NCBI GenBank assembly: GCA_019057795.1
Contig: JAHLWS010000024.1
Span: 33,497 to 97,496, forward strand
Length of the DNA: 64,000 bases
Direction of reading: 5' to 3'
Source of the DNA: Promethearchaeota archaeon
GTDB taxonomy: Archaea > Asgardarchaeota > Lokiarchaeia > Sigyniarchaeales > SOKP01
The position numbers and the translations under genes were made by a program. The notes below the pieces were generated by a model. That model ran no database searches and was not told where the DNA came from. It saw nothing but the letters and a program-made list of their open reading frames with translations. Shown piece by piece: positions 4,079 through 61,154 of the stretch (position 1 is the stretch's first letter; each line of letters begins with the position of its first letter).

Positions 4079-4186
4079 ATGACCGAAACAAAAGAAATAA
4101 ATGTGTATGAGAAGATAAGTAAAGTTTATCCAATTGTTCCTTACAGAAAAATTACTTTTAAAAATTCTGTTAATTTATTCAAATAA
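4079..4186 (+). pseudogene. Deletion remnant of the 5292..6773 FAD oxidoreductase (35-aa ORF)
   Basis: 4079-4124 matches 5292-5337 at 45/46 nt; 4129-4145 matches 5522-5538 at 16/17 nt; MTETKEINVYEKISKVYPIVPY...; upstream GAGGTGA. Confidence 0.85.
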
Positions 4187-4200
4187 AAGTGAAACATTAA

Positions 4201-5232
4201 ATGATTGAAACAAATATAACAAAAATGTTCGGGATAAAACACCCGATTTTTAGTGCTCCAATGGGTCCTTTTTTTACCCGCGATTTAGCTCTGGCTGTCA
4301 GTGAAGCTGGTGGATTAGGAGTATTATCTAACGTTAATATCACTGGTACAGATCCTGTTGCAGAACATAAGGCAAGCATAGAGTATATGATTGAACATAC
4401 TGATAAACCGTTCGGTCTCAATATTCTTACATCTCGGAATAATCCGGGAGTCAGACAAATGGTCAGATCATTACCGAAAATTGTCATGAGTAATGTAAGA
4501 ATGAGAGATCAATGTAAGTATTGGTTGACCTCTGCAGGTTCTTCAAAAATTCTCGCAGGAGCGAAATATTTTAAAGAATTAAGAGAGAATTCAGAAGTTA
4601 AGCACTTTCACGTAGCCCCAGCTGTATGGTTGGCTCAAAAGTGTGTGGATTCAGGAGTAGATGGAATAGTGGTGACTGGAACTGAAGGTGGAGGGCACCA
4701 ATCATATGAGAGAGTCAGTACTCTTGTTCTGCTTCAACAGATTAATAATAAATTTCCTGATTTACCAAAGATTGCTTGTGGGGGTTTTGCTACTGGAGAA
4801 GCTTTAGCCGCTGGTCTTTCACTAGGTGCAGGAGCAGTAGCAATGGGTTCAAGATTTATTGCTTCTAAACAGAGTGAATTTCATGAGAAATATAAAGCAT
4901 TAATTCCCCCTGGAAAACCACAGGATACCGGACTTTATACAGGATCCTTCGGTCCTATTCGCTTATACAAAAACGAGTATGCATTATCGCATCCAGCGCC
5001 TAGCAGCAAAGAAGAAATGATCGCTTACGAAAATTCAATATCTCCAGAACAAAGAGCAAAAGATTTAGGTGCTTATGATAGAGTATATAACGGTGATATT
5101 GACACGGGAGCGGTTCTACTTGGTCAATCAATAGGTATTATCGATAGTATAGACGATGTCAATGACATTATTGAGAGAATAATGAATCAAGCTGAAAATA
5201 TAATTAGAAGGAATAATTCCATGCTGAGATAA
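4201..5232 (+). CDS. Nitronate monooxygenase / FabK-like FMN oxidoreductase
   Basis: HPIFSAPMG, AVSEAGGLG, GTEGGGH, ACGG, GAVAMGSRF. Confidence 0.88.
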   Translation: MIETNITKMFGIKHPIFSAPMGPFFTRDLALAVSEAGGLGVLSNVNITGTDPVAEHKASIEYMIEHTDKPFGLNILTSRNNPGVRQMVRSLPKIVMSNVRMRDQCKYWLTSAGSSKILAGAKYFKELRENSEVKHFHVAPAVWLAQKCVDSGVDGIVVTGTEGGGHQSYERVSTLVLLQQINNKFPDLPKIACGGFATGEALAAGLSLGAGAVAMGSRFIASKQSEFHEKYKALIPPGKPQDTGLYTGSFGPIRLYKNEYALSHPAPSSKEEMIAYENSISPEQRAKDLGAYDRVYNGDIDTGAVLLGQSIGIIDSIDDVNDIIERIMNQAENIIRRNNSMLR

Positions 5233-5291
5233 GACCGAAGCCCAATGTGAATTATATAAAATAAATAAGAATACAAGGTGATATAACTTTA

Positions 5292-6773
5292 ATGACCGAA
5301 ACAAAAGAAAGAAATGTGTATGAGAAGATAAGTAAAGAGGATGTGCTTAAAAAGCTAGTCGAAATATTTGGAGAAAAATATGTAACCAATAAGTCTGGAG
5401 ATTTATACCCCTATTCGTACGATATGACCGAATGTGAGCCTCACATGCCTGATTTCATAGTTATTCCTGAAAATACTTCGCAATTAATCGAACTTGTTAA
5501 GTTTTGTAATTCTAATTTAATTCCCATTGTTCCTTACATATCTGGAAATAATGTAGGGGGTTTAACGATTCCGGAAAACGGTGGGATTCTCGTTGATTTT
5601 GGTAAAAAGATGAATAAAATTCTGCATGTTGATGACAATATGATGTACGCTCTCCTAGAACCTGGAGTTACTTTTGGTCAATTGAAAAAACACTTAGACG
5701 AAAATTACCCACACTTAAGATATAGTTATCCTTATGCACCTCCATACGCAGGGGTTGTTGGAAACGTGATATTGAGTGGTATGAATAATCTCTCGTGTAA
5801 AATTGGATCAATGGGCGATTCAATTAACGGTTTAGAGGTAATTACTGCTGACGGCGAAATCGCTAGGATTGGCTCGTGTTTTTATGGAAAGGATGAAGCA
5901 GCCCCCGATAGTTGGTGGTGTAGATACCCTATGCCTGATTTAATGGGAATCTTTATCAACTGGCAAGGTATGACAGGTTTAGTAACCAAATGTGCCGTTC
6001 AACTATGGCCTAATCCATCCATCAAACAAACCTATATCGCCATTGCTTTTGAACTTACAGATGTAGCTTCAGTAATGAGGGAAGTCGGGAGAACAGATGT
6101 CATCGACGGTATTTCAGCAGTTAGCATCGAAGTAGTAAAGATGGCTATAGAAATTCCTGAGCCTAAAAAATTTCCAGGTGAACCCTACTTTGCAGTGATG
6201 TTTTCAATCTCGGCAAAAACAAAAAATCAATTCAATGCTAGATTGGAAATTTTATCCAATGTAATCGAGAATTTAAATAAACAAGGGAAAAAAGTAATTT
6301 TAGTTAATGCTGACGAGTACGTCAAATTATTTAACTTAAGACTTAGGTGTTACCTCGATTTACCGTCCGTAGTACTTCCACTAGTAGAGTATTCAGGATT
6401 AACTTGGTTTGGGTCGTATGCTCCAAGTCACAAGCTCGAAGAACTAATCGAAAATGTGTATAAATTATTTAATAAACACAATATCACTCCATTTATTTAC
6501 ATGAAAATGATGAAATCAAGTCATTACGCGATATTTCGTCCTATTATGCGATATAACAAGTTTAAAGAAGGCGAAGAAGAAAGATACCACAAGCTATTAG
6601 AAGAAATAACTGATGTTTCAGTCGATTTAGGCTGTATACCATACAAAACCCCTGCTTGGATGACGGAAAAAATGCGCAAGAAGATTAACCCAGGATGGAT
6701 TAACCTCTTTGAAAAAATAAAGAAATGTATGGACCCAAACAATATATTTAACCCAGGAAGGTGGAATACATAA
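5292..6773 (+). CDS. FAD-binding oxidoreductase (VAO/PCMH/GlcD superfamily)
   Basis: Paralogue of 2053..3519; GLEVITADG, QGMTGLVTK, DPNNIFNPG. Confidence 0.9.
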   Translation: MTETKERNVYEKISKEDVLKKLVEIFGEKYVTNKSGDLYPYSYDMTECEPHMPDFIVIPENTSQLIELVKFCNSNLIPIVPYISGNNVGGLTIPENGGILVDFGKKMNKILHVDDNMMYALLEPGVTFGQLKKHLDENYPHLRYSYPYAPPYAGVVGNVILSGMNNLSCKIGSMGDSINGLEVITADGEIARIGSCFYGKDEAAPDSWWCRYPMPDLMGIFINWQGMTGLVTKCAVQLWPNPSIKQTYIAIAFELTDVASVMREVGRTDVIDGISAVSIEVVKMAIEIPEPKKFPGEPYFAVMFSISAKTKNQFNARLEILSNVIENLNKQGKKVILVNADEYVKLFNLRLRCYLDLPSVVLPLVEYSGLTWFGSYAPSHKLEELIENVYKLFNKHNITPFIYMKMMKSSHYAIFRPIMRYNKFKEGEEERYHKLLEEITDVSVDLGCIPYKTPAWMTEKMRKKINPGWINLFEKIKKCMDPNNIFNPGRWNT

Positions 6774-7952
6774 ATGATAGAAATTGATAAAAGTCTCGTA
6801 GGAAAAGATGTTTTGGAATTAGCATTTGATAACTGTATCCGTTGTTCTACATGTAAATATTCTTATAAGGGTTTCGAACCTTCGTGTCCTTCAGGAGAAA
6901 AGTTTTTATTCGAATCGTATTGGGCATCTGGGAAAATAAGAATAATAAGAGGTGTCGTAACTGGCGAATTAGAATGGTCTGAGGATTTAAAAGATGCTAT
7001 TTTTGCTTGTCCAACTTGTGGAGCTTGTATGGACGCTTGTCAAGCGCCTCACGCCGATTATATCGTAGATATGATAGAAGCCCTAAGAGAATTAGCTGTA
7101 AAACATATCGGACCAGCTACAAACCAAGAGTTTCTGGTTTCTCGTTGCGAAGAGAATTGTAATCCTTATGGAGAGTCTAACTCTGATAATGAAGCGTTGA
7201 AAAAACAATTTGACTTACCAGATAAAGCAGATTGGGTTTACTATATTGGTTGTACTTCTAATTACCGCCAACAAAGTTTAAGGGATTCAACTTTAAGATT
7301 CTTAAAAAAAAGCGGTATAAATTTCACTTTAATAGATGAGCATTGTTGTACGAGTCCTATGATTCGAACTGGTCAACTTAGCATTGTTAAGGATTATATG
7401 AGCTATAATATCGCTCAAATTAAAAATATTGGGGCTACTAAAGTTATTACCTCATGTGCGGGTTGTTATAGAACATTTAAAAAAGATTTCGAAAAATTTG
7501 GCGAAGAATACGATTTTGAAGTGTTCCACACTTTAGAATTAGTAAAACAACTATTAGACGACGATAAATTAAAGTTTAAATCGAAGTATAATAAAACAGT
7601 GACTTATCACGACCCTTGTCATCTTGGAAGGCATATGGGCGTTTATGAACTTCCTAGAGCGATTTACAAGCAAATCCCGGGGTTAAAGCTAGTAGAAATG
7701 AAAAGAAATAGGAATTTTGCTTGGTGTTGCGGAGCTGGAGGTGGCGTAAAAATTGGATACCCTGAATGGTCTGTAGAAATATCAAAAGAACACCTTGAAG
7801 AGGCTAAGGAGACCGAAGCAACGGTAATATCGTCAGTATGCCCTTTTTGTAGGACGAACTTAAGCGATGCAAATGATAATTATAACTTTGAATTTGAAGT
7901 ACTTGACCTAATGGAAATCATAGATCAATTAGATATTAAAATTGAGAAATAA
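6774..7952 (+). CDS. CCG-domain Fe-S oxidoreductase (GlcF/HdrD-like)
   Basis: CIRCSTC, CPTCGACMDAC, YHDPCHLGR, CCGAGGG, CPFC; abuts upstream gene. Confidence 0.9.
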   Translation: MIEIDKSLVGKDVLELAFDNCIRCSTCKYSYKGFEPSCPSGEKFLFESYWASGKIRIIRGVVTGELEWSEDLKDAIFACPTCGACMDACQAPHADYIVDMIEALRELAVKHIGPATNQEFLVSRCEENCNPYGESNSDNEALKKQFDLPDKADWVYYIGCTSNYRQQSLRDSTLRFLKKSGINFTLIDEHCCTSPMIRTGQLSIVKDYMSYNIAQIKNIGATKVITSCAGCYRTFKKDFEKFGEEYDFEVFHTLELVKQLLDDDKLKFKSKYNKTVTYHDPCHLGRHMGVYELPRAIYKQIPGLKLVEMKRNRNFAWCCGAGGGVKIGYPEWSVEISKEHLEEAKETEATVISSVCPFCRTNLSDANDNYNFEFEVLDLMEIIDQLDIKIEK

Positions 7953-8137
7953 AAATAAATTGAATCGTCAATTTTCTTTAATTCTTTTTTAAACCACTCT
8001 TTAGCTGTCACCTTAATACCTTAAAATGAAAGATCTCACTCATTTTAAAACATTAGAAAATTATAATTATATACAAATTTATTATTATTATGTTAATCGT
8101 AGAATAAATTATAATATTTTTAAGAGGTTAAATTTAA

Positions 8138-8467
8138 ATGAAAGATATTGATCAGATGGAAGAAATGATCATGGCATTAACTCCAGCAGAACGAGCGCAA
8201 CTATTACAAAAAATTGTGCAACATTTAGGTGAAAATTTTCCTAATATTGAAAGTGATCCAACCATATGTGGTGGTGAACCAAGAATTGTAAGAACAAGAA
8301 TACCAATATGGCTTTTAGTACAGGCGCGGCGATTAGGAACAACTGAAGCGGACATCTTAAAAAGCTATCCTTCATTACGAGCCGAAGATATAGTAAGTGC
8401 TTGGGCATATTATCGAAGCCATAAAGAAGAAATTGAACAACAGATCAGAGAAAATGAGGAAGCATAA
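8138..8467 (+). CDS. DUF433-family antitoxin
   Basis: DPTICGGEPRIVRTRIP...ILKSYPSL...EEIE. Confidence 0.88.
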   Translation: MKDIDQMEEMIMALTPAERAQLLQKIVQHLGENFPNIESDPTICGGEPRIVRTRIPIWLLVQARRLGTTEADILKSYPSLRAEDIVSAWAYYRSHKEEIEQQIRENEEA

Positions 8468-8470
8468 AAT

Positions 8471-8812
8471 ATGATTCGTTTTTATGCAAATGAAAATTTT
8501 CCCCTTCCAGTCGTACAACATCTCAGAAAATTTGGATATGAATTTATAACTCTTCAAGAAACAGGTCTTGCAGGAAAGGCAATATCAGATGAAGAGGTTT
8601 TAAAATATTCAATAAAACAGAAGTGCGTCCTAATAACTTTCAATAGAAAACATTTCATTCATTTGCATAAAGAAAATCCCGACCATCATGGCATTATTGT
8701 TTGCACATTTGATCCCGATTTTAAGGATCTCGCAAATCATATTCATCAAGCTATCGCTAAAGAAGATAATTTATTTAAAAAATTAATTAGAATTAATCGC
8801 CCAATGAGATAA
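8471..8812 (+). CDS. DUF5615 / Mut7-C-like PIN toxin
   Basis: FYANENFP, SDEEVL, LITFNRKHF, HHGII; paired with DUF433. Confidence 0.85.
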   Translation: MIRFYANENFPLPVVQHLRKFGYEFITLQETGLAGKAISDEEVLKYSIKQKCVLITFNRKHFIHLHKENPDHHGIIVCTFDPDFKDLANHIHQAIAKEDNLFKKLIRINRPMR

Positions 8813-8880
8813 AACTAGGAAGGAATAAATATTACTTACTGATTGTTAGATTATTTTTAATAAATTTCCTATGACTTTTA

Positions 8881-8903
8881 ATGGAGGTTTGATTCCTTTT
8901 TTC
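8881..8903 (+). repeat. 23-bp direct repeat copy A (partner 12092-12114), T-arm-like hairpin + T run
   Basis: atggaggtttgattccttttttc vs atgggggttcgaatccttttttc, 20/23 identical. Confidence 0.5.
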
Positions 8904-8956
8904 TCAAAAAAAGTTGGATAATTACATCCCAAGCAGATAAGGGCTATTCTAAAGGT

Positions 8957-9022
8957 CTAGTAACATATAATTATTGATTCATAATCGACAGTCGCTATAG
9001 GGGACCATCTTATTTCAACCAT
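8957..9022 (-). pseudogene. Truncated RelE/ParE toxin (N-terminal 21 aa)
   Basis: MVEIRWSPIATVDYESII... resembles MVDIRWSIGALEDIESIS of 58341..58625, with the same 13-nt overlap with its antitoxin. Confidence 0.8.
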
Positions 9023-9204
9023 TCTTTAAACCTTTCTTTTACATCATCATGGGATATAAATTCTCCCTTATCCAACTGCTCAATACCTTTTGTAATCATT
9101 TGCTGAACATAAATTGATTCCATGATATCATCGTAATTAGCATCATTTGGAAGCTTTTTAATTGATTCAATTACCTTTTCTTTTATTGTTTGCATATTCT
9201 TCAA
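9010..9204 (-). CDS. Addiction-module antitoxin (orphaned)
   Basis: Paralogue of 58159..58353 (LPxD...G..I/LS/THD/EE.KER.K.WL). Confidence 0.82.
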   Translation of the reverse strand: MKNMQTIKEKVIESIKKLPNDANYDDIMESIYVQQMITKGIEQLDKGEFISHDDVKERFKEWLK

Positions 9205-9520
9205 TATTTATAATGTATTTATAATTTAAATTATTAATCTTAGGATTGATTAAATCTTAAAATAATTAAATAAATCAATTAAAAGTGAGTGAAAATGCTT
9301 AATATCTGCCCTATTTGGGTAGAATACTAAAAAATTTAAGAAAAAGGATCATTCTAACTAAGAAAATTTTAATTTTCCATTTAGGGAATATTCATGCAGA
9401 TTAATCCTTACAAGTAGTATTTTATAAACTTCCTATGTAATAATTGCATATACATTTAAATTGAGTGAAATTCTAATATACTTTAACACTTGATATGACA
9501 ACATTTAGCGTGAGAAAAGG

Positions 9521-10021
9521 ATGAAATATAAAAGAAATCAATATTCTGAAGGAGTTAGCGTTTGCTCTTTCATTATAGCTGGTATTTTAATTTATTGGGG
9601 AACTAATGATATCTTTGTACCCCTTTGGGCTGGTACATCAATTAATTGGTGGGGACTCTTCTGGTATGCAATTGCGGCAGCTATTATTGGCGGTCAGATC
9701 GCAGCGTGGGCTAACAGAAGTAAACTAAGAAACGCTGTTTTATACGAGTATGAGGAACATCCGGAAGCAACCATCGAAGAAATTAGCCAAAACACGGGAA
9801 TTACTATAAAAGATGTACAAGCCATAATTTTAGACTTAAAAGCAAGTGGCTTATTACGAGGTAAATTCTCTTCCACTACAGGACAATTGACTCATGCAGA
9901 AGTTATAAAAAAACCACAAGGAGAAGTTTCAGAAGGAAAAGTAACTTATTGTCCAAATTGTGGAACCGCAAAAGTAAAAGAATCGGCAGTATTTTGCTCA
10001 TATTGCGGTACAAAATTATAA
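9521..10021 (+). CDS. 2-TM protein with PCI-like winged helix and C-terminal zinc ribbon
   Basis: Two hydrophobic helices; TIEEISQNTGITIKDVQAIILDLKASGLLRGKF; CPNCG...CSYCG. Confidence 0.7.
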   Translation: MKYKRNQYSEGVSVCSFIIAGILIYWGTNDIFVPLWAGTSINWWGLFWYAIAAAIIGGQIAAWANRSKLRNAVLYEYEEHPEATIEEISQNTGITIKDVQAIILDLKASGLLRGKFSSTTGQLTHAEVIKKPQGEVSEGKVTYCPNCGTAKVKESAVFCSYCGTKL

Positions 10022-10227
10022 ATTATAACTTTTCTTATTTTTTTATTCTAAAATTACTTTTTAGTAAAAACTTTATAAACTAATTTAGCAAATTAATAGT
10101 AATAATTGATTTTGAAGAGAAATATCGTATAAGGGTGTAAAATATAGAATTAGAAGATGAAAGGTTTTCGAAAGACGAAAACCTATGGGAAGAACATAAG
10201 ATTCCATTAACTTATGATCAAGAGAGT

Positions 10228-11193: not shown

Positions 11194-11478
11194 AAAAAAA
11201 TTTTATCCTTATTTTTTAATCTTCAAAAATTCAAGTAGATTACTCGTAGATTGTCTTACTGAACTCAAATAATTTCACTTAGAAGAGTAACGGTTTTAGA
11301 AGATATTTTCTCAATATTAACACGCACTTCTTTCTTCAACAATTTCTCGAAAAATTAGGAAACAGCATTACACGCAAAAAATTATGGAAATTGACAATTG
11401 TTTAATATTCAATAAATTTATTTCTTTAAATTTCTATTATTGTAATGAATAAAAATAAATTAAAAGCATAAAAATAAA

Positions 11479-11709
11479 ATGAAAGTATATCTTGAAAAAG
11501 AAGTAGCTGAGGATTTAATTGGTTATAAATTGAGAAATATTCAAGAAAATATTAAAAAAATATTAAAAAGATGGAATGAAATTGAATCGTCTACATTTTT
11601 AGAGAAGGCAAAAAATGGTACATATTCTGAAGCGGAAAACGATGCGATTGATTTAAAGCAATTATTACTTGAAGAAAATAAATTAAATAACCTAATGAAT
11701 TCCTTTTAG
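11479..11709 (+). CDS. Putative antitoxin partner of DUF6516 protein
   Basis: Small charged ORF abutting next gene. Confidence 0.6.
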   Translation: MKVYLEKEVAEDLIGYKLRNIQENIKKILKRWNEIESSTFLEKAKNGTYSEAENDAIDLKQLLLEENKLNNLMNSF

Positions 11710-12078
11710 ATGAAGAATATTTTGACAGGTCTTGACAAACTTATTGTTGCACGCAAAATTCTATTAGAAAATTTACTTCCAAAAATTAAAAATGAATATA
11801 TCGATGATGAACGCCCGTTTTTAGAAATTTCTTTTTTTAAAGGATTAATTCTCTATATCCGTTATAATGACTATGAAGAATATTCTTATCAATTAATCTA
11901 TTCACAGAATCCTCTTGATAGAATTCGTTATGATAATTATGATGATATGTGGAATGTTAAATCTAAACCTCATCATTATCATCCTAGAGGAGAAAAAGCT
12001 GCTATTGAAAGCTCGATGAATGGAGATCCCAAACATGATATGCTAATTCTTATAAAAGAGTTTTTAATTGTCTTATAA
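11710..12078 (+). CDS. DUF6516/TumE-like putative toxin
   Basis: YSYQ...RYDN...PHHYH motif. Confidence 0.72.
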   Translation: MKNILTGLDKLIVARKILLENLLPKIKNEYIDDERPFLEISFFKGLILYIRYNDYEEYSYQLIYSQNPLDRIRYDNYDDMWNVKSKPHHYHPRGEKAAIESSMNGDPKHDMLILIKEFLIVL

Positions 12079-12091
12079 TCTCCAATATTAT

Positions 12092-12114
12092 ATGGGGGTT
12101 CGAATCCTTTTTTC
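12092..12114 (+). repeat. 23-bp direct repeat copy B, contains GGTTCGAATCC
   Basis: See 8881-8903. Confidence 0.5.
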
Positions 12115-12186
12115 ATAAAAGATTAGAGTATATTCAGATTAGAATCATTTTGATCCAATTTTTCCTGAAATGGAGGGGTTTGTGCT

Positions 12187-12429
12187 AACGGAAAAAGAAA
12201 AAAAGTAGCAATAGCTCTAGGTCATGAACCATATGGGGCTATGGCTGGAATTACCGGCGTACCATTAGCCATAGGAGCAATTATGATGATCGACGGTAAA
12301 ATCAATAAAAAAGGAGTTTTAACTCCTGAAGAGGCAATAACTGAACCAATGGAATTTTTTAATAGACTTGCTCCTTATTGTGGTAAAAATCTTTCAGGTA
12401 AGGATATTTTGATAATTAGAGAAGATTAA
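12187..12429 (+). pseudogene. C-terminal remnant of a saccharopine dehydrogenase-like oxidoreductase
   Basis: GKRKKVAI...MAGITGVPLAIGAIMMIDGKINKKGVLTPEE; in-frame stop at 12166-12168, no Rossmann N-terminus. Confidence 0.72.
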
Positions 12430-12487
12430 TCTAAATTAATTTTTTTTTTATATATCTTTTTATAGAAAAACAAGTGCAATTATAATC

Positions 12488-13315
12488 ATGGAAAAGTTAA
12501 TCGTTTCATGTGTTCAATTTGCGTATAAGCAAATTGAAAGTTTCGATGATTTCGCTAAAAATGTGGAAAATTTAATGAACCAAGCCGATGGTTCGGATTT
12601 TGTCGTGTTTCCCGAGACTATTACTTTAGAACTTCAATATCTAATTCCAAACAACAATTTGAATAAAATCCCTGAATTCACTAAGAAATACAGAAACCTT
12701 TTCGCTCGCTTATCTAAAGAAAAAGGGCAATATATTATAGGGGGTTCACACTTAACAATTGAAAACGGAAAGGAGTATAATATAGGGCATATATTTTGCC
12801 CCGATGGAAAATTATTGATACATCGAAAAACACATCTTTTTCCATTAGAAGCAAGTATGGGGGTGACTCCTGGAAACACTTTAGAAATCTTCGAAACCGA
12901 AAAAGCGAACATTGGTCTGGCTATCTGTTACGAGATGGAGTTTCCAGAAGTAGCTCGAACATTAACTTTAAAAGGGGCTGATGTTATTTTTTGCCCCTCC
13001 TATACCATAGGCGAAGCTGGATTCTGGCGCGTTAGGCATTGTTGCCAAGCACGAGCCATAGAAAATCAGATTTACGTCCTCCATTCGTGTTTGGTAGGAG
13101 AGTCTCCGCATAAAGGAATGGAAGGATGGGGAAGATCGTCAATTTTAAGTCCGTGCGAAACTCCATGGAATCCTAATGGCATAATTGCTGAAGCTAAAAC
13201 AAATGAAGAAATGGTGATAACTGGTGAATTAGATCTTAAGGTTCTACACAAAAAAAGAAAACGTGGAGCGGCTACTACTCTTAAAGACCGACGTCCTGAA
13301 ATCTATAAAATTTAA
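12488..13315 (+). CDS. Carbon-nitrogen hydrolase (nitrilase superfamily)
   Basis: VFPE, RKTHL, ICYEMEFPE triad; ARAIENQ. Confidence 0.92.
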   Translation: MEKLIVSCVQFAYKQIESFDDFAKNVENLMNQADGSDFVVFPETITLELQYLIPNNNLNKIPEFTKKYRNLFARLSKEKGQYIIGGSHLTIENGKEYNIGHIFCPDGKLLIHRKTHLFPLEASMGVTPGNTLEIFETEKANIGLAICYEMEFPEVARTLTLKGADVIFCPSYTIGEAGFWRVRHCCQARAIENQIYVLHSCLVGESPHKGMEGWGRSSILSPCETPWNPNGIIAEAKTNEEMVITGELDLKVLHKKRKRGAATTLKDRRPEIYKI

Positions 13316-17540: not shown

Positions 17541-18446
17541 TCAATCAATGTCTAGGGAGAAAAATTTAATTGCATTTTCTACTGTTCTTTCACTAACGAT
17601 ACTTTGGGGTACATTATGAGAAAAAGCAAGAGCAGCAATTGAATATTTAACATTTAACGGTACATTCACGGGTCCTCGTAAATACGGATGTTGGTAATAA
17701 CTATCCGTTTCCGTAATTAGAGAATTTAATGGAGTATTTTTTGTAACTCTCCGCCATTTATTAATACTATATGCCGAACTAGGAACGGAAAGTATATAAC
17801 CTTGCTTGGGTAAAGAAATTCCATACTCCTGTGGCCCAGAAAAGCAGTGCCACATAGCTTTTTTTGGATTAACATTAAACTCCTTAATAATATTAAGAAT
17901 TTCTTTTGTAGCTCCATCTCTTTTATTAAAGCGGTGTTTAGGGTTACCTCTATCAAACTCGTGTTCAGTAGCGTTTCTAACGTGAAGAACATAAGGTTTA
18001 TTATAACTAATAGTCAGTTCAAAAATTTTCTTTAGTTCGGTAACCTGTTTATTTCTCTTTTCAAGAGTCTTAGCATGATGAAAATCTAAACCAATTTCTC
18101 CAATTGCCAAATAATTCTCTTGGTTTCCTTCAATATAATCAACCCATTTTTTCCATTCTCTTTCGTATTGGAATTTAGGAGTATACGTAACGGTTTGAGG
18201 TGCCCAACCACACGTAAAACCCATTCTTTCTTTTCCTATAATAAATTTTAAAATTAAATCAAGAGTACTGTTATCGATCGAGCTCGTTATTATGTAAGCA
18301 CCACCGTTTTTAAAAAAGTCCTGATATTGTTGCTCATCAGAAGGTAACCGATCGTTTCTTTTAGGACGAGGAAATGGGAGGTGACAATGGGTATCTATGA
18401 ACTTAAGATTTTCTTCTGGTTCTGGGATATCGATTTTCTTAGGCAT
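17541..18446 (-). CDS. TatD-family metal-dependent hydrolase
   Basis: DTHCH, IGEIGLDF, LHVR, HCFS, ETDS. Confidence 0.9.
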   Translation of the reverse strand: MPKKIDIPEPEENLKFIDTHCHLPFPRPKRNDRLPSDEQQYQDFFKNGGAYIITSSIDNSTLDLILKFIIGKERMGFTCGWAPQTVTYTPKFQYEREWKKWVDYIEGNQENYLAIGEIGLDFHHAKTLEKRNKQVTELKKIFELTISYNKPYVLHVRNATEHEFDRGNPKHRFNKRDGATKEILNIIKEFNVNPKKAMWHCFSGPQEYGISLPKQGYILSVPSSAYSINKWRRVTKNTPLNSLITETDSYYQHPYLRGPVNVPLNVKYSIAALAFSHNVPQSIVSERTVENAIKFFSLDID

Positions 18447-18511
18447 GTTTAATCAATACTATATTATAGAAAGTCTTTTGTGAGAAAATTGTTTTAACAA
18501 TTTAATCTTTG

Positions 18512-18546
18512 TTTTAACACCAATAAAGATGCTTTAATTAAATTTT
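18512..18546 (+). repeat. 35-bp direct repeat copy A (partner 19763-19797)
   Basis: ttttaacaccaataaagatgctttaattaaatttt, 34/35 identical to partner. Confidence 0.9.
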
Positions 18547-18675
18547 AATTAAAGATTCATAATTATGTATAATAATTTAATACATTGGAATGGATATTCA
18601 TATTATTATAATTATAAATATTTTCAATAATTTTTACATCTAAATAATATTCAGTAATAATAGAGGCATAAAAAT

Positions 18676-19284
18676 TTGGATCTATTCTCAATCATAAATT
18701 TTATTTCATTACTATGCACCTTTTTTGTTATGGGCTATTTTTACACCCTCAGTATCCAACCCATAAAGCGTTCAGAAAAATATGGTGACAAAGCATGGAA
18801 AGATTGTAAAAAGTTCCGCTCAATTGGAGGATTAGCTGAATTTATTTCAATTGCAAATTTAATCCTTTGGATTTGGTTTCCTCTTCCCGTTGTAAATGAG
18901 TGGATCATCAGTTCAAATATCTGGATTGGGATAATCATAGGGATCTGTATATTGATACCAGGTATATATCTTCTGATAAGGGGGATGAAGGATGCTGGGA
19001 CTGAAACTCTAACTCCTTCTAAAGAAACAAAAATGTATAGTGGAATTTATAACTATATAAGACATCCTCAAACTCTTGGAGAGTTTCCTATGTTCATTGC
19101 TATGAGTTTTATGTTTAATTCATGGTTTTTAGTAATCCTTTCCTCATTGTTCATCATAATTTATACTCCCATAATGATTCACTATGAAGAAATAGATCTT
19201 GTTAAACGATTCGGTGAAAAATATACGGAATATCAGAAAAGAACGGGAGCATTATTTCCGAAATTAAAAAGGCATCAAAATTAA
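18676..19284 (+). CDS. ICMT/PEMT-family membrane methyltransferase
   Basis: GIYNYIRHPQ, EEIDLVKRFGEKYTEYQKRT. Confidence 0.88.
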   Translation: MDLFSIINFISLLCTFFVMGYFYTLSIQPIKRSEKYGDKAWKDCKKFRSIGGLAEFISIANLILWIWFPLPVVNEWIISSNIWIGIIIGICILIPGIYLLIRGMKDAGTETLTPSKETKMYSGIYNYIRHPQTLGEFPMFIAMSFMFNSWFLVILSSLFIIIYTPIMIHYEEIDLVKRFGEKYTEYQKRTGALFPKLKRHQN

Positions 19285-19305
19285 AATAAATAATAACAAA
19301 ATAAT

Positions 19306-19740
19306 GTGAATATATCTATGGAACAGCCCAAAAAAACCTATAAAATTAAAGAAAATAAGTGTTTATATGTAGCATCAATTTTAATGCTACTCTACTCCTT
19401 ACTAGAAATTGCAGATAGCATTGCGATTATCCTAATTGCATTTAATATCATTCCAAATCTTTATTTAGAATGGGGTATCCCTATAATACAACAACTTATG
19501 GAAACCCAACCTTTTTCTCTCGCACCCCTTTTCTGGGCTTTTACGATAATGAGAACTGTTTCTGCAATTGGGCTTATGAAAAATTTATTATGGGGATTTT
19601 GGATTGGAATTGCTAGTTTACTCATTACCATGATCCTTTCCATGTTATTTCTACCTATTGGTGCTTTTGAACTTCTTGGGTGTGCTATAATCTTCATTTT
19701 ATTAGTTATGGGATATTGTAAAGATAGACCAATAATATAA
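19306..19740 (+). CDS. Hypothetical 4-TM membrane protein
   Basis: Hydrophobic segments, co-oriented with ICMT gene. Confidence 0.7.
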   Translation: MNISMEQPKKTYKIKENKCLYVASILMLLYSLLEIADSIAIILIAFNIIPNLYLEWGIPIIQQLMETQPFSLAPLFWAFTIMRTVSAIGLMKNLLWGFWIGIASLLITMILSMLFLPIGAFELLGCAIIFILLVMGYCKDRPII

Positions 19741-19762
19741 ACCAAAAAGGTCAATTCTCAAA

Positions 19763-19797
19763 TTTTAACACCAATTAAGATGCTTTAATTAAATTTT
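19763..19797 (+). repeat. 35-bp direct repeat copy B, includes TATA-like box for 19827 gene
   Basis: ttttaacaccaattaagatgctttaattaaatttt ends 30 nt before ATG. Confidence 0.9.
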
Positions 19798-19826
19798 TAA
19801 ACAACCCATTTTATTTAGATGATATA

Positions 19827-20240
19827 ATGATCGAAGAATTAAAATCTAAACTTAAAGAATTAGAACTTAAAAAAAACGAACTTCAACCAAAAATTGACGA
19901 GATAGGAGCAAAAAGGGCTGAAGAACTTCAAGAAGTTAACAAAAAATTCGACCACATGGTTGCAGATGTCAATATAGAAGTTCAAGACTTTAAAAATAAA
20001 ATTATGAACGATATAATCGATTTATTTTCAAAGGTTGTGATGGACGAGTTTGACTCGAAAAGAAGTACAAGTGATTACATGGTTACAGATAACTTTAAAG
20101 ATTTTCGAGAAAGCGTTTTAGAACTCGAAATGTTTCCTAAGGAACTAATTGAGAGATTGGATAAAGTGATTGATGGAGATCCAATTGAAAATATTGCGTA
20201 TGACATTGAAAAAATCGAAGCTAAATATAAAAATAATTAA
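19827..20240 (+). CDS. Hypothetical coiled-coil protein
   Basis: Heptad E/K/L-rich N-terminus. Confidence 0.75.
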   Translation: MIEELKSKLKELELKKNELQPKIDEIGAKRAEELQEVNKKFDHMVADVNIEVQDFKNKIMNDIIDLFSKVVMDEFDSKRSTSDYMVTDNFKDFRESVLELEMFPKELIERLDKVIDGDPIENIAYDIEKIEAKYKNN

Positions 20241-39243: not shown

Positions 39244-39287
39244 TAAATTAAAAATTTATTATCAAAGATTCCTAATATTTTTTTTCA

Positions 39288-40193
39288 TAAATTTTTTTCA
39301 GCTTTCAAATTAAAAAAAATGAAAAAGGCTTAAGAAGTTAAAGCGCTTACAATTTCTTCAAAATAATTGAAAATCGTGGAGTAATGCCCATCGTTTGGAT
39401 AAAATTTTCCTTCACAATTTGGAATTGCTTTACACATACCACGACCCATAGCAACAGGCACAGCTTCATCCACTTCTCCATGCCATAAATACACTTTAAG
39501 TTTTGGAGTTATATCTTCAAGGCTAAAACCCCAAGGTTTTGCGTATAATTTCCCTTCGTAAATTGCTCCTTTATTTCCTTGTCGGAATGCTTCTGCGCTT
39601 TCTTTAATAAAAAGAGGAAGTAATTTAGGATCTTCCATAACTTTCCTATCTGGTTCTGGAAACTTTTTAATAGTTTTCCTCATTCTACTTTCTGCTTTTT
39701 CTAAATCTTTCAACCCTCGAGATTGAAAAGATATCATCAATTTAAAAATCCATGGCATTCTTCGAATAACAAAAGATAATCTGCGAATACTTTTTATTTT
39801 TTCTTCTACTTCAAGATCCATTGGTCCTAAACCGCTAATAATACCACAAGTCGTTAAGCGATCAGGAATTTTATATGCACACGCTGCAGCATATGGACCT
39901 CCCCCCGATATTCCTTCAATAGCAAATTTCTCTATTCCTAAAGCGTTAGATAGCTCAACTACATCATCTGGCCAATCTAAAATAGTACGGTCTTTTTTGA
40001 AATCTGAAAGCCCCATGCCTGGTCTATCGATTCCAATAAGCCTAACATTATTTTGAACGACTATATCCGCAAAAATAACAACTTCTAAACGAGAACCTGG
40101 AAAACCATGGAAGTGAAATAATGGTTTTGCTTCTGGATTACCTAAATCCGCGTAACCAAGATTCCTTCCATCTTTTAATTTAATTGTCAGATT
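39288..40193. repeat. About 900-bp duplication copy A (partner ~44114-45018)
   Basis: Near-identical DNA covering the hydrolase CDS and ~40 nt of its 3' flank; 5' ends differ. Confidence 0.92.
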
Positions 40194-40223
40194 TACTTTA
40201 TCATTATTAACTATACAATTCAC
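39330..40223 (-). CDS. Alpha/beta hydrolase
   Basis: HGFPGSR, DRPG, GISGGG, D, GH triad. Confidence 0.9.
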   Translation of the reverse strand: MNCIVNNDKVNLTIKLKDGRNLGYADLGNPEAKPLFHFHGFPGSRLEVVIFADIVVQNNVRLIGIDRPGMGLSDFKKDRTILDWPDDVVELSNALGIEKFAIEGISGGGPYAAACAYKIPDRLTTCGIISGLGPMDLEVEEKIKSIRRLSFVIRRMPWIFKLMISFQSRGLKDLEKAESRMRKTIKKFPEPDRKVMEDPKLLPLFIKESAEAFRQGNKGAIYEGKLYAKPWGFSLEDITPKLKVYLWHGEVDEAVPVAMGRGMCKAIPNCEGKFYPNDGHYSTIFNYFEEIVSALTS

Positions 40224-41056: not shown

Positions 41057-41296
41057 TTATGATGTATATTTCTCTGTTTTTGAAGTTTTATACGCTGTAA
41101 TGACTATTTTCGCATCTCCATCAGAGAAATAAAAAACACGTAAAAGTCGCCTTTCTATTATTTTTTGGGCTACAGAATTACCATAAAGATCTTTCTTTAA
41201 AAGATCGGGATTATTAATAGTATCAAGTATCTCATCTTTAGATATTTTCCGCTTTTTAATCCTATGCAAAGCATGTTTAGTGAATTTTATAGACAT
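41057..41296 (-). CDS. DUF4258 RelE-like toxin
   Basis: FTKHALHRIKKR...LRVFY...VITAY. Confidence 0.85.
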   Translation of the reverse strand: MSIKFTKHALHRIKKRKISKDEILDTINNPDLLKKDLYGNSVAQKIIERRLLRVFYFSDGDAKIVITAYKTSKTEKYTS

Positions 41297-41514
41297 TCTA
41301 CTATCATTGGTATTATTTCTTCAACATCTTTTTGGACGAGATCATTAAGATTAAGATTGCGATCTGTGAAATTTAATATTTCCACACCTACTAGCTGATC
41401 GTCTTTACCATAATCAACTATTATGCCTTTAGCAATTTCATCTGATTCTTGGATTTCTTCATTCGAGAACCGCAGATATAAAGCATTTGCTATTTTATCA
41501 AAAGAAAATTCCAT
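41287..41514 (-). CDS. DUF2283 antitoxin-like protein
   Basis: FDKIANALYLRF...IIVDY...VGVEIL. Confidence 0.88.
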   Translation of the reverse strand: MEFSFDKIANALYLRFSNEEIQESDEIAKGIIVDYGKDDQLVGVEILNFTDRNLNLNDLVQKDVEEIIPMIVECL

Positions 41515-44034: not shown

Positions 44035-44113
44035 TATTTAAACCAACCATAAAATGTTTATTTATAAGCTTATTAGAAATAGGATAGTAAAAAAAGTTTA
44101 TATTAATATTCAG

Positions 44114-45018
44114 TAAATTTTTTTCAGCTTTTAAATTAAAAAAATGAAAAAGGCTTAAGAAGTTAAAGCGCTTACAATTTCTTCAAAATATTTGAAAATC
44201 GTGGAGTAATGCCCATCGTTTGGATAAAATTTTCCTTCACAATTTGGAATTGCTTTACACATACCACGACCCATCGCAACAGGTACAGCTTCGTCCTCTT
44301 CTCCATGCCATATATACACTTTAAGTTTTGGAGATATATCTTCAGGGCTAAAACCCCAAGGTTTCGCGTATAATTTCCCTTCGTAAAATACTCCTTTATT
44401 TCCTTGACGAAATGCTTCTGCGCTTTCTCTAATAAAAAGAGAAAGCAATTTAGGATCGTCCATAACTTCCCTATCTGGTTCTGGAAACTTTTTAATAGTT
44501 TCCCTCATTTTCCTTTCTGCTTTTTCTAAATCTTTCAAACCTCGAGATTGAAAAGATATCATCAATTTAAAAAGCCATGGCATTCTTCGAATAACAAAAG
44601 AAAATCTGCGAATACTTTTTATTTTTTCTTCTACTTCGAGATCCATTGGTCCTAAACCGCTAATAATACCACAAGTCGTTAAACGCTCAGGAGTTTTATA
44701 TGCACACGCTGCAGCATATGGACCACCCCCTGATATTCCTTCAATAGCAAATTTGTCTATTCCTAAAGCGTCAGCTAGCTCAACTACATCATCTGGCCAG
44801 TCTAAAATGGTACGGTCTTTTTTGAAATCTGAAAGCCCCTTTCCTGGTCTATCGATTCCAATAAGTCTAATATTATTTTGAACAACTCTATCCGCAAAAA
44901 TAGCAACTTCTAAACGAGAACCTGGGAAACCGTGGAAGTGAAATAATGGTTTTACTTCTGGATTACCTAAATCCGCGTAACCAAGTTTCCTTCCATCTTT
45001 TAATTCAAATGTTAGATT
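44114..45018. repeat. About 900-bp duplication copy B
   Basis: See 39288-40193. Confidence 0.92.
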
Positions 45019-45048
45019 AAGATTATCACTCTTAGGCATTTCATACAT
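44155..45048 (-). CDS. Alpha/beta hydrolase (start likely 45048 or 45039 rather than 45105)
   Basis: Near-identical to 39330..40223; later start avoids overlap with the GNAT gene. Confidence 0.88.
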   Translation of the reverse strand: MYEMPKSDNLNLTFELKDGRKLGYADLGNPEVKPLFHFHGFPGSRLEVAIFADRVVQNNIRLIGIDRPGKGLSDFKKDRTILDWPDDVVELADALGIDKFAIEGISGGGPYAAACAYKTPERLTTCGIISGLGPMDLEVEEKIKSIRRFSFVIRRMPWLFKLMISFQSRGLKDLEKAERKMRETIKKFPEPDREVMDDPKLLSLFIRESAEAFRQGNKGVFYEGKLYAKPWGFSPEDISPKLKVYIWHGEEDEAVPVAMGRGMCKAIPNCEGKFYPNDGHYSTIFKYFEEIVSALTS

Positions 45049-45071
45049 CACGGTAAAAAAATCTAATTTAA

Positions 45072-45599
45072 TCAATTTACTGATTTTATTTCCATATAAA
45101 TCCAATAAGGTTGAAGTCCTGGTGGAACTTCAGTTTCGGGGTATATCTCTCTCTCTTGAAACCCTGCTGAACGATAAACATGTTGTGCAGCAGTCATAAA
45201 TCGGCCAGTATCAAGTAGGATTCTTGAACATCCGAATTCTTTCCCTTTGTTTAAAAGATGTTTTAGTAGGCCTTTTCCAAAACCTTTCCCTCGATAATTT
45301 GGTCTGATATACATTCTTTTTATTACCCCTGTATTAACATTAAGTTTTATTAAAGCACCCATCCCAACTACATTTTTTTTTATTTTTAGTATATAGAAAA
45401 CTCCTTCAGGTGGCACATAGGATGTAAGTTCTTCAACACTAATTTTGGCATAATCTCGAATTGGTTGCCCCAGTAGGGAAACTACATCTATTTTGTAGTG
45501 CTTCATAACTTCATTGGTAATCCAAGACAAATATTCATCGTTTAAATCTATTAAAAGGGATTTATGAACTCTCAAATCAATAGGAATATACTCAATCAT
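45072..45599 (-). CDS. GNAT N-acetyltransferase
   Basis: KRMYIRPNYRGKGFGK, AQHVYRSAGF. Confidence 0.9.
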   Translation of the reverse strand: MIEYIPIDLRVHKSLLIDLNDEYLSWITNEVMKHYKIDVVSLLGQPIRDYAKISVEELTSYVPPEGVFYILKIKKNVVGMGALIKLNVNTGVIKRMYIRPNYRGKGFGKGLLKHLLNKGKEFGCSRILLDTGRFMTAAQHVYRSAGFQEREIYPETEVPPGLQPYWIYMEIKSVN

Positions 45600-56696: not shown

Positions 56697-56750
56697 TAAT
56701 TTAATATTTTTTTACAATAATTATTCACAATAAGAAATCGGAAGGAATCA

Positions 56751-56775
56751 TTTGATTAACTTATAATTAATCAAA
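56751..56775. promoter_or_regulatory. 9-bp perfect inverted repeat upstream of IDH
   Basis: tttgattaa-N7-ttaatcaaa. Confidence 0.35.
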
Positions 56776-56844
56776 AAATTGTAATATCACGAGTACAAAA
56801 AAAAAAATAGAAAAGAAAAAGTAAAAGAAATAGGGAAAACAATA

Positions 56845-58044: not shown

Positions 58045-58158
58045 AAAGATACTTTAAACAACAAACTTTTTTTAATTTTTTTTATTATATATCTATTTTT
58101 TTAGAAAAACAACTTATTTCTTCCATCAATAGTTAAATTTTAATTTATAAATAATCAT

Positions 58159-58353
58159 ATGAATATTATGCCATCTGTAAAAAACGCGGTAATTGATTTT
58201 ATTAAAAGTTTACCGGATGATCTAACCGTGGAAGAGATTGCGTATAAACTATATCTCGATGAAAGAATTAATAAAGCCCAAAAGCAAATGAAAGAAGGAA
58301 ATTATTTAACTCACGAAGAAGCTAAAGAACGGCTGAAAAAATGGTTGATATAA
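58159..58353 (+). CDS. Addiction-module antitoxin
   Basis: Small ORF overlapping RelE/ParE gene. Confidence 0.85.
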   Translation: MNIMPSVKNAVIDFIKSLPDDLTVEEIAYKLYLDERINKAQKQMKEGNYLTHEEAKERLKKWLI

Positions 58354-58625
58354 GATGGTCAATAGGAGCATTAGAAGATATAGAATCTATTTCTTCATAT
58401 ATTTCTCAGGATTTTCCAGAAAAAGCTAGTGAGATTGTTAGAGGAATTATCGAGAAGATTGAACAATTGAAACGATTTCCTAAGCTTGGTCGCAAATTTC
58501 CAGACAGAGATGATGAGAGAATTAGAGAGATTATTTTTAAAAAGTATAGAATTGTCTATGAAATTAAGGAAGAAATTGTAGAAATCCTTGTGATTGCTCA
58601 TGGGAGCAGATTACTAAAAATATAA
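58341..58625 (+). CDS. RelE/ParE toxin
   Basis: WS..A.ED...I..YI, FPKLGR, YRIVY, IAHG. Confidence 0.9.
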   Translation: MVDIRWSIGALEDIESISSYISQDFPEKASEIVRGIIEKIEQLKRFPKLGRKFPDRDDERIREIIFKKYRIVYEIKEEIVEILVIAHGSRLLKI

Positions 58626-58641
58626 CGATAAAGTTTAATTC

Positions 58642-58682
58642 TAATTATTATAATAATGTAAAGAATACTATTAGAATGGTTT
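58642..58682 (+). repeat. 41-bp direct repeat copy A (partner 61114-61154), 5' leader of MFS gene
   Basis: taattattataataatgtaaagaatactattagaatggttt, 39/41 identical to partner. Confidence 0.92.
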
Positions 58683-58684
58683 AA

Positions 58685-60270
<1,586 letters not shown>

Positions 60271-60290
60271 ACTTTTACAAAGAATTATAA

Positions 60291-60314
60291 ATATGTGTGT
60301 GTGTGTATACATAT
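60291..60314. promoter_or_regulatory. Candidate VapB operator: (TG)n tract within atatgt...acatat inverted repeat, after TATA-like ttataaat
   Basis: atatgtgtgtgtgtgtatacatat overlapping the vapB start. Confidence 0.4.
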
Positions 60315-60552
60315 GACTTCAAAAAATATTAGTATAACTAAAGATGTTTATAACAAATTACTCAAGATTAAGCTTGAAAATGAAAGCTTTTCAGAACTTT
60401 TCTTAAGGCTTTTAAAAATACAAAAGAATACACTTGAAAAATCTTTTGGCGCATGGGATCTTTCAGAGGAGGAAGAGAAAGAGATATGGGTAGAAATTTC
60501 TACTCGCAATGGAAGAAGTTGGAACAAATCAAATGTAGAGGATTTAAAATGA
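60313..60552 (+). CDS. VapB antitoxin (DUF217-like)
   Basis: KNISITKDVYNKL...ESFSELFLRL...FGAW. Confidence 0.88.
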   Translation: MTSKNISITKDVYNKLLKIKLENESFSELFLRLLKIQKNTLEKSFGAWDLSEEEEKEIWVEISTRNGRSWNKSNVEDLK

Positions 60553-60956
60553 TTCTTTTAGATACATCTGCTTGCATCGATTATTTAAATGGAAATAAAG
60601 AAATTAAAAAAGTAATTGAAGAACAAGATGATCTTATTCACATTACATCTATAACCATTTATGAAATGAATATAGGTTTTGAAAGAACCAAACGCAAAAT
60701 TTCTGAACAAAGATATAAGCAGCTTTATAAACCTTGGTTAGAATTTATAAGCAGTATGGAGATTTTTGCTTTAGGATTTAAGGAGGCTGAAAAAGCCGCT
60801 AAGATTTATGATGCCTTAGAGTCTCAAGGTAAAGCTATTGATGATAATGACATTTTAATAATTGGAATCATGTTAGCAAATGGGATTAAGAAATTAATCA
60901 CAAAGAATATAAGACATTTTGAAAGAATTGTAGATATAGAACTTATAACATATTAA
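60549..60956 (+). CDS. VapC PIN toxin (start corrected to 60549)
   Basis: MILLDTS, IYEM, DNDILI, TKNIRHF; ATGA overlap. Confidence 0.9.
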   Translation: MILLDTSACIDYLNGNKEIKKVIEEQDDLIHITSITIYEMNIGFERTKRKISEQRYKQLYKPWLEFISSMEIFALGFKEAEKAAKIYDALESQGKAIDDNDILIIGIMLANGIKKLITKNIRHFERIVDIELITY

Positions 60957-61113
60957 AGACTATTTATAGGAAATCTTCAACATTTAATTAAAAATTCTCT
61001 TTAAAACTATAGAAGTCGGTAGAGAGTTTATTCTTAGTTTTTTAACACTTGAACTTATAAACGGGTTGTCATTCCCATAATACTATCAATAAATATTATT
61101 ACAAATCCCAAAT

Positions 61114-61154
61114 TAATTATTATAATAATGTAAAAAACACTATTAGAATGGTTT
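61114..61154 (+). repeat. 41-bp direct repeat copy B, 5' leader of 61161 gene
   Basis: See 58642-58682. Confidence 0.92.

Follow-up and report, generated by a model that had tools for sequence, protein, structure and literature searches.

The window analysed here is a 64-kb stretch (G000:C24:33497–97496) of the genome of a Loki-type Asgard archaeon, in which five pairs of direct repeats accompany short blocks of genes. Its source genome, G000, is a metagenome bin of 4.95 Mb in 87 contigs with a G+C content of 32%, a coding share of 84%, and an estimated contamination of 7.5%. Comparisons were made with 41 other genomes of the same genus (G and C numbers denote genomes and contigs, respectively), of which G042, G005, G020, G050, G051, and G009 are nearest to G000, with ∼90–97% DNA identity in shared genes. 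All five repeat pairs listed in a preliminary description of this DNA were found again in the window sequence. A Markov-3 simulation of G000, evaluated for pairs no more than 10 kb apart, gave, per 2 Mb, three direct repeats of 25–29 nt and none that reached 30 nt, and pairs 1, 3, 4, and 5 therefore lie far above chance. The five pairs are, however, not one phenomenon. The entry of a block of genes with a long duplication of the target, as originally proposed, holds for pairs 1 and 3 and is a plausible reading of pair 5, and a single bracketed block is the wrong description of pair 2. Also as described earlier, pairs 1, 3, and 5 duplicate the promoter, leader, or first codons of a gene. Coordinates below are window positions unless a contig is named; the features of pairs 1, 2, 3, and 5 are given on the plus strand, and both copies of pair 4 are on the minus strand.

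The cleanest case is pair 3, which is situated between tatD and a gene encoding a coiled-coil protein. The left copy (18512–18546) is a 35-nt target duplication within the divergent promoter region of these two genes and matches the right copy (19763–19797) at 34 of 35 positions; the right copy lies 30–64 nt upstream of the start of the coiled-coil gene at 19827. The intervening 1216 nt (18547–19762) encode an ICMT/PEMT-like methyltransferase (18676–19284) and a small membrane protein (19306–19740). A search of the relatives with positions 17541–20240 as query revealed an empty site in G005, where the tatD and coiled-coil pieces abut with an overlap of 34 nt and the 35-mer is present once. The G000 sequence leaves that of G005 after the last base of the left copy and returns to it where the right copy begins. 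The ICMT block is wholly absent from G005, and tatD is joined directly to the coiled-coil gene with a single 35-mer both there and in >15 other genomes of the genus, including G002, G008, G012, G018, G006, and G016.

The pair 3 insert was observed between two copies of the repeat in G000 and G020. In G020, the insert retains 181 nt that G000 has lost and that appear to encode the C-terminus of an ICMT paralogue located upstream, which places the left end of the insert inside a gene; the right copy of the repeat in G020 has lost 27 nt. The insert is 80–83% identical to blocks in G022 and G016, compared with only 70% for tatD of those genomes, and no copy of the 35-mer was detected in these donor-like loci. 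Given that the duplicated 35 nt occupy the position expected of an archaeal promoter, the insert and the old gene would each keep one copy.

Pair 1 lies at the start of an intact FAD-oxidase gene (5292–6773). Its right copy (5292–5337) is the beginning of that gene, and its left copy (4079–4124) is a stranded duplicate of the first 46 nt, identical at 45 of 46 positions, that opens a remnant open reading frame of 35 codons. The insert (4138–5239) carries a nitronate-monooxygenase-family gene (4201–5232; Pfam NMO, E 1e-39) with its own upstream spacer. Alignment with the B-type junctions of G008 and G002 identified the right end of the insert (5240–5291) as the tail of a second SCP2 gene followed by the leader of a paralogous, B-type oxidase gene. 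The filled state, with 1167 nt between the two copies, was found in G000 only. In the empty genomes G042, G020, G005, G050, and G051, the oxidase gene comes immediately after SCP2; the two pieces of the BLAST match overlap there by as many bases as the repeat is long, and alignments confirm that the repeat is present once. The left copy tracks the empty-site sequence of G042, G020, and G005 to its final base and then diverges.

The insert of pair 1 is 87–89% identical to DNA of G008, G056, G049, G002, G048, and G052, against 73–79% for the flanks compared with the same genomes. Within this donor-like clade, the NMO gene lies between an SCP2/oxidase-A module and an SCP2/oxidase-B module. At the right junction in G000, the B-type leader gives way to recipient A-type sequence exactly at the motif ATGAC. 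Both 46-nt copies are of the recipient type, with 1–2 differences from G042 and 7–9 from the donor clade. Integration of a donor circle by a single crossover was rejected for this site, because a donor-borne homologous site would leave hybrid copies, and both copies as well as a further remnant of the target gene are of the recipient type. This remnant comprises the 22 nt that follow the left copy (4125–4146), which at first had the appearance of filler. A 16-nt core within them has one near match elsewhere in the 4.95-Mb genome, at positions 5523–5538, 232 nt into the duplicated FAD-oxidase gene; it matches G042, G005, and G020 at 16 of 16 nt in the same position and differs from the donor-type genes. 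Because the remnant thus corresponds to approximately nt 225–247 of the recipient oxidase gene, the alignments indicate that the duplication originally spanned at least 247 nt and that the stranded copy later lost nt 47–224.

A genome-wide search for direct repeats, an approach suggested in the preliminary description, was performed by k-mer matching with extension and was confined to two-armed, isolated, non-low-complexity repeats separated by 100–10,000 nt. It returned a strong excess: 107 direct repeats of at least 25 nt lay within 10 kb of each other in G000, compared with 14 inverted ones and ∼7 expected by chance. The median spacing of the direct pairs was 1.5 kb, and 59 of them were exactly two-copy in the whole genome. 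Both arms were located at gene starts or in intergenic DNA in 45 of 105 pairs, where 7.5 would be expected under random placement. Sampled stretches of three other genomes (400, 260, and 140 kb) gave direct-to-inverted ratios of 5:1, 4:1, and 3:0 at similar densities, and the habit is therefore not peculiar to G000. No periodicity in duplication length, such as histone- or Okazaki-sized steps, was found among the 31 cleanest pairs, which were spread evenly between 25 and 132 nt.

Twelve pairs, consisting of pairs 1 and 3 and ten further ones, were then compared with the closest relatives, and exact single-copy empty sites were obtained for eight. Their duplications measure 35, 42, 46, 51, 53, 82, 108, and 111 nt. 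The site at C79 87565/88930 (53 nt) is empty in five of the five closest relatives; that at C56 2430/4074 (51 nt) is empty in G020 and filled in G005; and at C77 169629/170613 (82 nt), two relatives are empty and two have other content. The remaining exact empty sites belong to C65 61928/65202 (42 nt), C65 92509/93711 (108 nt), and C11 44910/48481 (111 nt). The proposal that blocks enter with a long target duplication thus extends well beyond the window.

The genes carried by the inserts are unremarkable. Pfam profiles of the cargo identified, besides NMO, ICMT/PEMT-like genes, a membrane protein, a gluconolactonase, a PAS histidine kinase, and proteins of no assigned function; no restriction-modification genes were among them. 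Where an origin can be traced, sequence identity assigns the inserts to the chromosomal contexts of other lineages of the genus. At a threshold of E 1e-20, none of the five closest relatives matched the C79 insert, and no match in the genus exceeded 75% identity. PEMT/ICMT-like membrane methyltransferases occur in two of the eight verified inserts, as a tandem pair at C79:87633–88839 (69% identical to each other) and as the single gene at 18676–19284 in the window. A shared mobile ICMT module was considered and rejected, the ICMT-like inserts of pair 3 and C79 not being closely related.

The statement in the preliminary description that no insertion sequence, terminal inverted repeat, or integrase is associated with the bracketed blocks was upheld by the cargo profiles, a shuffle test, and a map of recombinase genes. 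The best terminal inverted matches were 9–11 nt, equal to those of shuffled sequences, and no shared end motif or inverted ends were apparent among six inserts. Pfam scans of the insert genes detected no transposase, integrase, prophage, or Cas1. The genome has four tyrosine recombinases (PF00589; serine recombinases were not included in the search), which are located on other contigs or far away, with none on the contig of the window, and its two Cas1 genes are likewise outside the inserts. Features of the integron type were also sought, and neither a shared end motif, inverted ends, nor a nearby tyrosine recombinase was seen, although no dedicated attC model was run. The window contains no tRNA gene. 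The repeats are unrelated to one another in sequence, and the duplications, at 35 to at least 247 nt, are all of different lengths. Decay by deletion is seen directly at pairs 1 and 3, in the losses of 27 nt, 181 nt, and nt 47–224 described above.

Pair 5 is situated in a region that has been reshuffled. Copy A (58642–58701) contains 41 nt of the leader of a COG2403-type gene; to its left, a TAATTA microhomology marks the junction with a ParDE block, and to its right lies the start of a gene for an MFS transporter. The bracketed block (58685–61113) comprises this transporter gene, the tail of a GH1 gene, and VapBC, and is followed by copy B (61114–61173), which contains the leader and first codons of a 446-aa gene. 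The copies are 87% identical over 60 nt, with a core of 39 of 41. The order of the blocks differs between G000 and G042 even though the blocks themselves are 92–98% identical: in G000, an isocitrate-dehydrogenase-family gene is followed by ParDE, MFS, the GH1 tail, VapBC, and then the leader with the 446-aa gene, whereas in G042 the isocitrate-dehydrogenase-family gene is followed by VapBC, and ParDE adjoins the leader. In G042, G020, and G051, 115–139 nt of the same leader and first codons are duplicated around a 2.8-kb block that has no counterpart in G000 and encodes an acyltransferase and a protein of no known function, with no recombinase. Copy B of G000 resembles the first copy of those relatives in its upstream part and the second copy in its downstream part, a pattern that would be expected either from an ancestral empty site or from precise loss between repeats. 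By analogy, pair 5 could plausibly be a product of the process seen at pairs 1 and 3, acting more than once on one site.

Two further repeats were observed in the corresponding region of G042 (L027; G042:C48:38500–53500). The first 20 codons of the GH1 gene are repeated (49 of 60 nt; 4514–4573 and 7628–7687 of L027) 3.1 kb upstream, ahead of MFS and GH63-like genes. This resembles an older, diverged duplication of a 5′-end around a sugar-uptake block, and the GH1 gene is split into two open reading frames. In addition, 34 nt from the start of the ParDE block (window 58114–58147) recur after that block at about 9080–9113 and 9893–9926 of L027, bracketing ParDE and one small gene, a scar of the same type.

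The repeat of pair 4 does bracket a block, as described, and consists of a gene-length duplicate within a mosaic region. Copy 1 (39275–40209) contains an alpha/beta-hydrolase gene (39330–40223; Pfam Abhydrolase_1) with 55 nt of its 3′-flank, and copy 2 (44100–45034) contains a second such gene (44155–45105); the two copies are 93.6% identical over 936 nt. Copy 2, which follows fumarase, occupies the usual position in the genus, where the order FMN-dehydrogenase, fumarase, hydrolase prevails. Relatives keep one hydrolase, corresponding to copy 1 in G042, G005, G020, and G009 and to copy 2 in G051 and G050. Pair 4 may represent either a very long target duplication or the merger of two gene orders.

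Pair 2 (8881 and 12092) had been described as bracketing one block, and this does not hold. Its arms are identical at 20 of 23 positions, and by our own estimate ∼3–4 such pairs within 10 kb would be expected per 64 kb at this base composition; in the census, the 20–24-nt class was barely enriched, with 48 direct and 26 inverted repeats. Comparison with G042 and G051, in which genes for a CCG protein, a radical-SAM protein, and a CN-hydrolase follow one another, revealed two separate insertions, within which the 23-mers lie and bracket nothing. Insertion alpha (8005–10020) holds the 8881 23-mer and carries a DUF433/DUF5615 toxin-antitoxin pair and a zinc-ribbon gene, with only an imperfect T-rich duplication of ∼18 nt. 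Insertion beta (11195–12508) holds the 12092 23-mer and carries a small gene, a TumE toxin gene, and a gene remnant; no clear duplication was found for it against the same two genomes. A tRNA-derived att site was rejected for pair 2: the 23-mer is two-copy in the genome, but the window has no tRNA gene, the match is at chance level, and the insertions are separate. The remnant within insertion beta (12170–12430), ∼85 codons that lack a proper start, comes directly after the TumE gene and the second 23-mer.

Each variable block of the window contains a toxin-antitoxin pair: DUF433/DUF5615 at 8138–8812, TumE and a small partner at 11479–12078, DUF4258/DUF2283 at 41057–41514, ParDE at 58104–58625, and VapBC at 60295–60956. 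These modules are in different places in G042 despite identities of 95–98%.

Taken together, these observations are best explained as follows: a 1–3-kb piece of chromosomal DNA, foreign or ectopic and in most cases comprising one or two ordinary genes of another lineage of the genus, is joined in at a gene boundary, and tens to hundreds of bases of the target are copied to both sides in the same event. A probability of about 0.8 is assigned to this reading. The polarity is that of insertion and not deletion, and the duplicated sequence is the recipient's own. The ends of the inserts are arbitrary, sometimes falling inside gene remnants, with neither inverted termini nor a recombinase, and the redundant copy decays by deletion. 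The joining itself would be a form of illegitimate break repair or replication restart, in which a captured fragment that shares little or no homology with them may bridge two chromosome ends that overlap. Such an overlap could be due to a break with a long stagger, to a fork that collapsed and resumed behind the break, or to breakage of two sister copies at nearby points. Some preference for microhomology-mediated joining or template switching comes from the microhomologies at the junctions (ATGAC and TAATTA) and from the several segments that make up the pair 1 insert. Selection would then retain only those events at gene boundaries, where the duplication saves the promoter, start, or end of the neighbouring gene, and such survivorship in an 84%-coding genome can account for the concentration at gene starts. 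The flanking repeats may later permit precise loss or exchange of the block, giving rise to turnover and insertion hot spots. Recurrent use of sites, together with filled sites distributed incongruently among relatives, suggests either such loss between repeats or allele exchange through homologous recombination in the flanks.

Several observations weigh against this interpretation or restrict it. Pairs 2 and 4 do not fit insertion with long target duplication, and the clean empty site that was sought for pair 5 was not found in any relative, so that pair 5 fits by analogy only. No clean empty site was found for four of the 12 tested pairs (C76, C63, and two C65 pairs). Presence and absence are also incongruent, with the pair 3 insertion in G020 and not G005 and the C56 event in G005 and not G020, which obliges one to assume later loss or exchange of alleles. 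The E. coli K-12 baseline consists of two 50-kb pieces analysed with no isolation filter and is too small for a comparison of frequency with prokaryotes generally. Every genome is a metagenome bin, in which polymorphism within populations and intermediates of the process are not seen. The mechanism of joining, finally, is one that we infer and goes beyond what these data show. Ku was not found in G000, which leaves classical end joining with no candidate enzyme here, and end joining of the Ku type was accordingly set aside.

One alternative is that no process exists, and that the pairs represent chance matches, shared regulatory motifs, ordinary paralogy, or assembly artefacts. Such an account is true of pair 2, which is at chance level, and largely true of pair 4, with its gene-length paralogy, and the 87 contigs and 7.5% contamination of the bin speak in its favour. 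As a general explanation it is scarcely credible, given the 107 direct against 14 inverted repeats with ∼7 expected by chance, the empty sites that align base for base, and the recurrence of two insertions in relatives that were assembled independently (that of pair 3 in G020, the C56 event in G005). Point mutations distinguish the repeat copies, which rules out k-mer overlaps, and for pairs 1 and 3 the absence of any process is refuted. The preliminary description had offered a second alternative, tandem duplication of several genes followed by random loss that leaves a short remnant of the start of the first copy. Genes of the inserts do lie near the target in more distant genomes (NMO 1.5 kb downstream in G002 and G008, the ICMT block 3.5 kb downstream in G016), copies are seen to decay by deletion, and the existence of long duplicated stretches is evident from pair 4 and from the duplication of at least 247 nt at pair 1. 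In the closest relatives, however, the insert DNA is missing nearby: G005 is devoid of the ICMT block, G020 and G005 have their nearest NMO genes 18 kb away and at 75–77% identity, and the C79 insert is unmatched at E 1e-20 in all five. Given in addition that inserts are nearer than their flanks to other clades and that several events would be required at each locus every time, this course of events is highly improbable.

Site-specific integration would require small non-autonomous circles, with an attP equal to the host site, integrated in trans by a tyrosine recombinase, an integron-like system, or Cas1. The resemblance of direct repeats of 35–50 nt around inserts to att sites speaks for it, as do the four tyrosine recombinases and two Cas1 genes of the genome and the repeated use of the COG2403 leader and the C77 site with different content. 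It is nonetheless very unlikely, being at odds with the variable length and unrelated sequence of the repeats, none of which is in a tRNA gene, with insert ends that fall within gene remnants of another chromosome, with donor-like loci in G022 and G016 that do not have the 35-mer, and with the lack of a recombinase in or beside any insert. At pair 1, moreover, crossover with a donor site would give hybrids, and both copies are of the recipient type. Aloposons, which are large tRNA-targeted elements with giant genes, were likewise considered and rejected. Little credence can be given to homing-nuclease cassettes, in which cleavage of a host gene end by a selfish nuclease is followed by spread of the cassette through repair, a replacement gene end being carried along. 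Such cassettes also yield a duplicated gene end beside an insert, and their nucleases could supply breaks; yet the inserts of pairs 1 and 3 and four further ones encode no recognisable nuclease, the repeat copies are 97–98% identical and of the recipient type rather than diverged replacement ends, and several duplications span promoters instead of gene ends. A bolder proposition, and on balance an unlikely one, is that Loki-type Asgard archaea possess a dedicated or at least habitual break-repair route by which stray DNA is caught, at promoters and gene ends, between chromosome ends that overlap. It might take the form of fill-in of long single-stranded tails by a primase/polymerase, or of fork restart behind a break, and would possibly be fed by free-standing nucleases.

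The scar itself is of a known type. Insertion with long target duplication was reportedly defined by Nobusato, Uchiyama, Ohashi, and Kobayashi in 2000 (Gene 259:99). In the survey of Furuta, Abe, and Kobayashi (2010; NAR 38:2428, PMC2853133), it is recognised by an empty site in a relative, a long variable duplication, and no other mobile element. The duplications there exceed 30 bp, range from 45 to about 420 bp in the tables, and are unique in the genome; all cases are bacterial restriction-modification genes, and no archaeal case survived the screen. The mechanism was left open, with DNA breakage by the restriction-modification system proposed to take part (PMC2853133). The events described here share the empty site, the single target in the empty genome that becomes a direct repeat around the insert, the variable duplication of >30 bp, its uniqueness in the genome, and the absence of a mobile element. 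They differ from the published ones in the Asgard archaeal host, in a cargo of metabolic, membrane, and signalling genes, and in the tens of scars within a single genome. What is new is thus the archaeal host, the ordinary cargo, and the notable frequency; a search of the literature found nothing direct on this process in Asgard or other archaea.

Other systems share some of these features. DNA transposons and casposons likewise generate a direct duplication of the target at insertion, presumably by fill-in of a stagger, but their duplications are short and fixed (2–15 bp), and they have defined, usually inverted ends and their own transposase or Cas1, none of which was found here. Duplications of 19–26 bp are given for IS1630 (PMC2853133). 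Integrative elements are also flanked by direct repeats of 30–60 nt (attL/attR). Their repeat pre-exists on the element and the target is often a tRNA gene, whereas here the repeat is the recipient's own sequence and of variable length, with no integrase and no tRNA target. Template switching, microhomology-mediated break-induced replication, and the capture of filler during end joining have been described mainly in eukaryotes and E. coli. Such events resemble those reported here in the arbitrary insert, the target duplication, the low-homology junctions (ATGAC and TAATTA in this case), and the multi-segment structure. They are usually rare pathological rearrangements and not a routine means of gene gain, and their operation here is a proposal with no enzyme candidate.

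The minimal mobile elements of Neisseria exchange cassettes by homologous recombination in the flanking genes. Different cassettes are found at the same site in different strains with no mobility genes, in keeping with the hot spots and mosaic regions of pairs 2, 4, and 5. Minimal mobile elements swap existing cassettes and make no target duplication, and similar exchange may act here after a first insertion. The mORFs of fungal mitochondria and the WHO elements of yeast are said to be homing-endonuclease cassettes with replacement gene ends. They share with the present events a duplicated gene end beside a recombinase-free insert; theirs, however, carry a nuclease and a diverged, cleavage-resistant end, in contrast to the near-identical copies and the absence of a recognisable nuclease in the inserts here.

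The footprint has been in print since 2000 and was earlier read as a property of selfish nuclease genes of restriction-modification systems. Given that the same scar occurs in an archaeon around ordinary genes of sister lineages, the footprint can be separated from restriction enzymes borne by the insert, which points to break repair or replication restart by the host. The scars offer a countable route for gene gain in Asgard archaea that does not involve the enzymes of mobile elements. A gene gained in this manner can arrive with a ready-made promoter while its neighbour retains its own, and the flanking repeats would make the gain reversible. Should a dedicated or habitual capture route exist, insertion with long target duplication would be a main means, free of recombinases, by which the closest prokaryotic relatives of eukaryotes gain genes, duplicate promoters, and turn genes over. 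With at least 40 genomes available for the genus, statistics on the junctions could render the mechanism testable.

Further repeats and rearrangements were noted outside the window. Within C65:91000–102600, the closest relatives do not have segments of 2.4–4.6 kb, with breakpoints away from both repeat pairs present there (94038/99013 and 97565/101093), and the right-hand part of this region is on other contigs in all relatives. A 32-nt direct repeat at G000:C38:86732/87288, with copies 556 nt apart, resembles the T-arm and acceptor of a tRNA (GGTTCGATTCCCGG) and could represent either two tRNA genes or an att-type scar. At G000:C86:7346/12006, a 129-nt direct repeat, 98% identical and with a G+C-rich, hairpin-like core, brackets 4.5 kb with three to four genes; ARAGORN detected no tRNA at this locus. 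Finally, G000:C80:24901–27797 contains three interleaved pairs of direct repeats (36, 56, and 49 nt; 94–98% identical) within 3 kb, and a 99-nt pair follows 5 kb further on, making this a dense cluster of scars.

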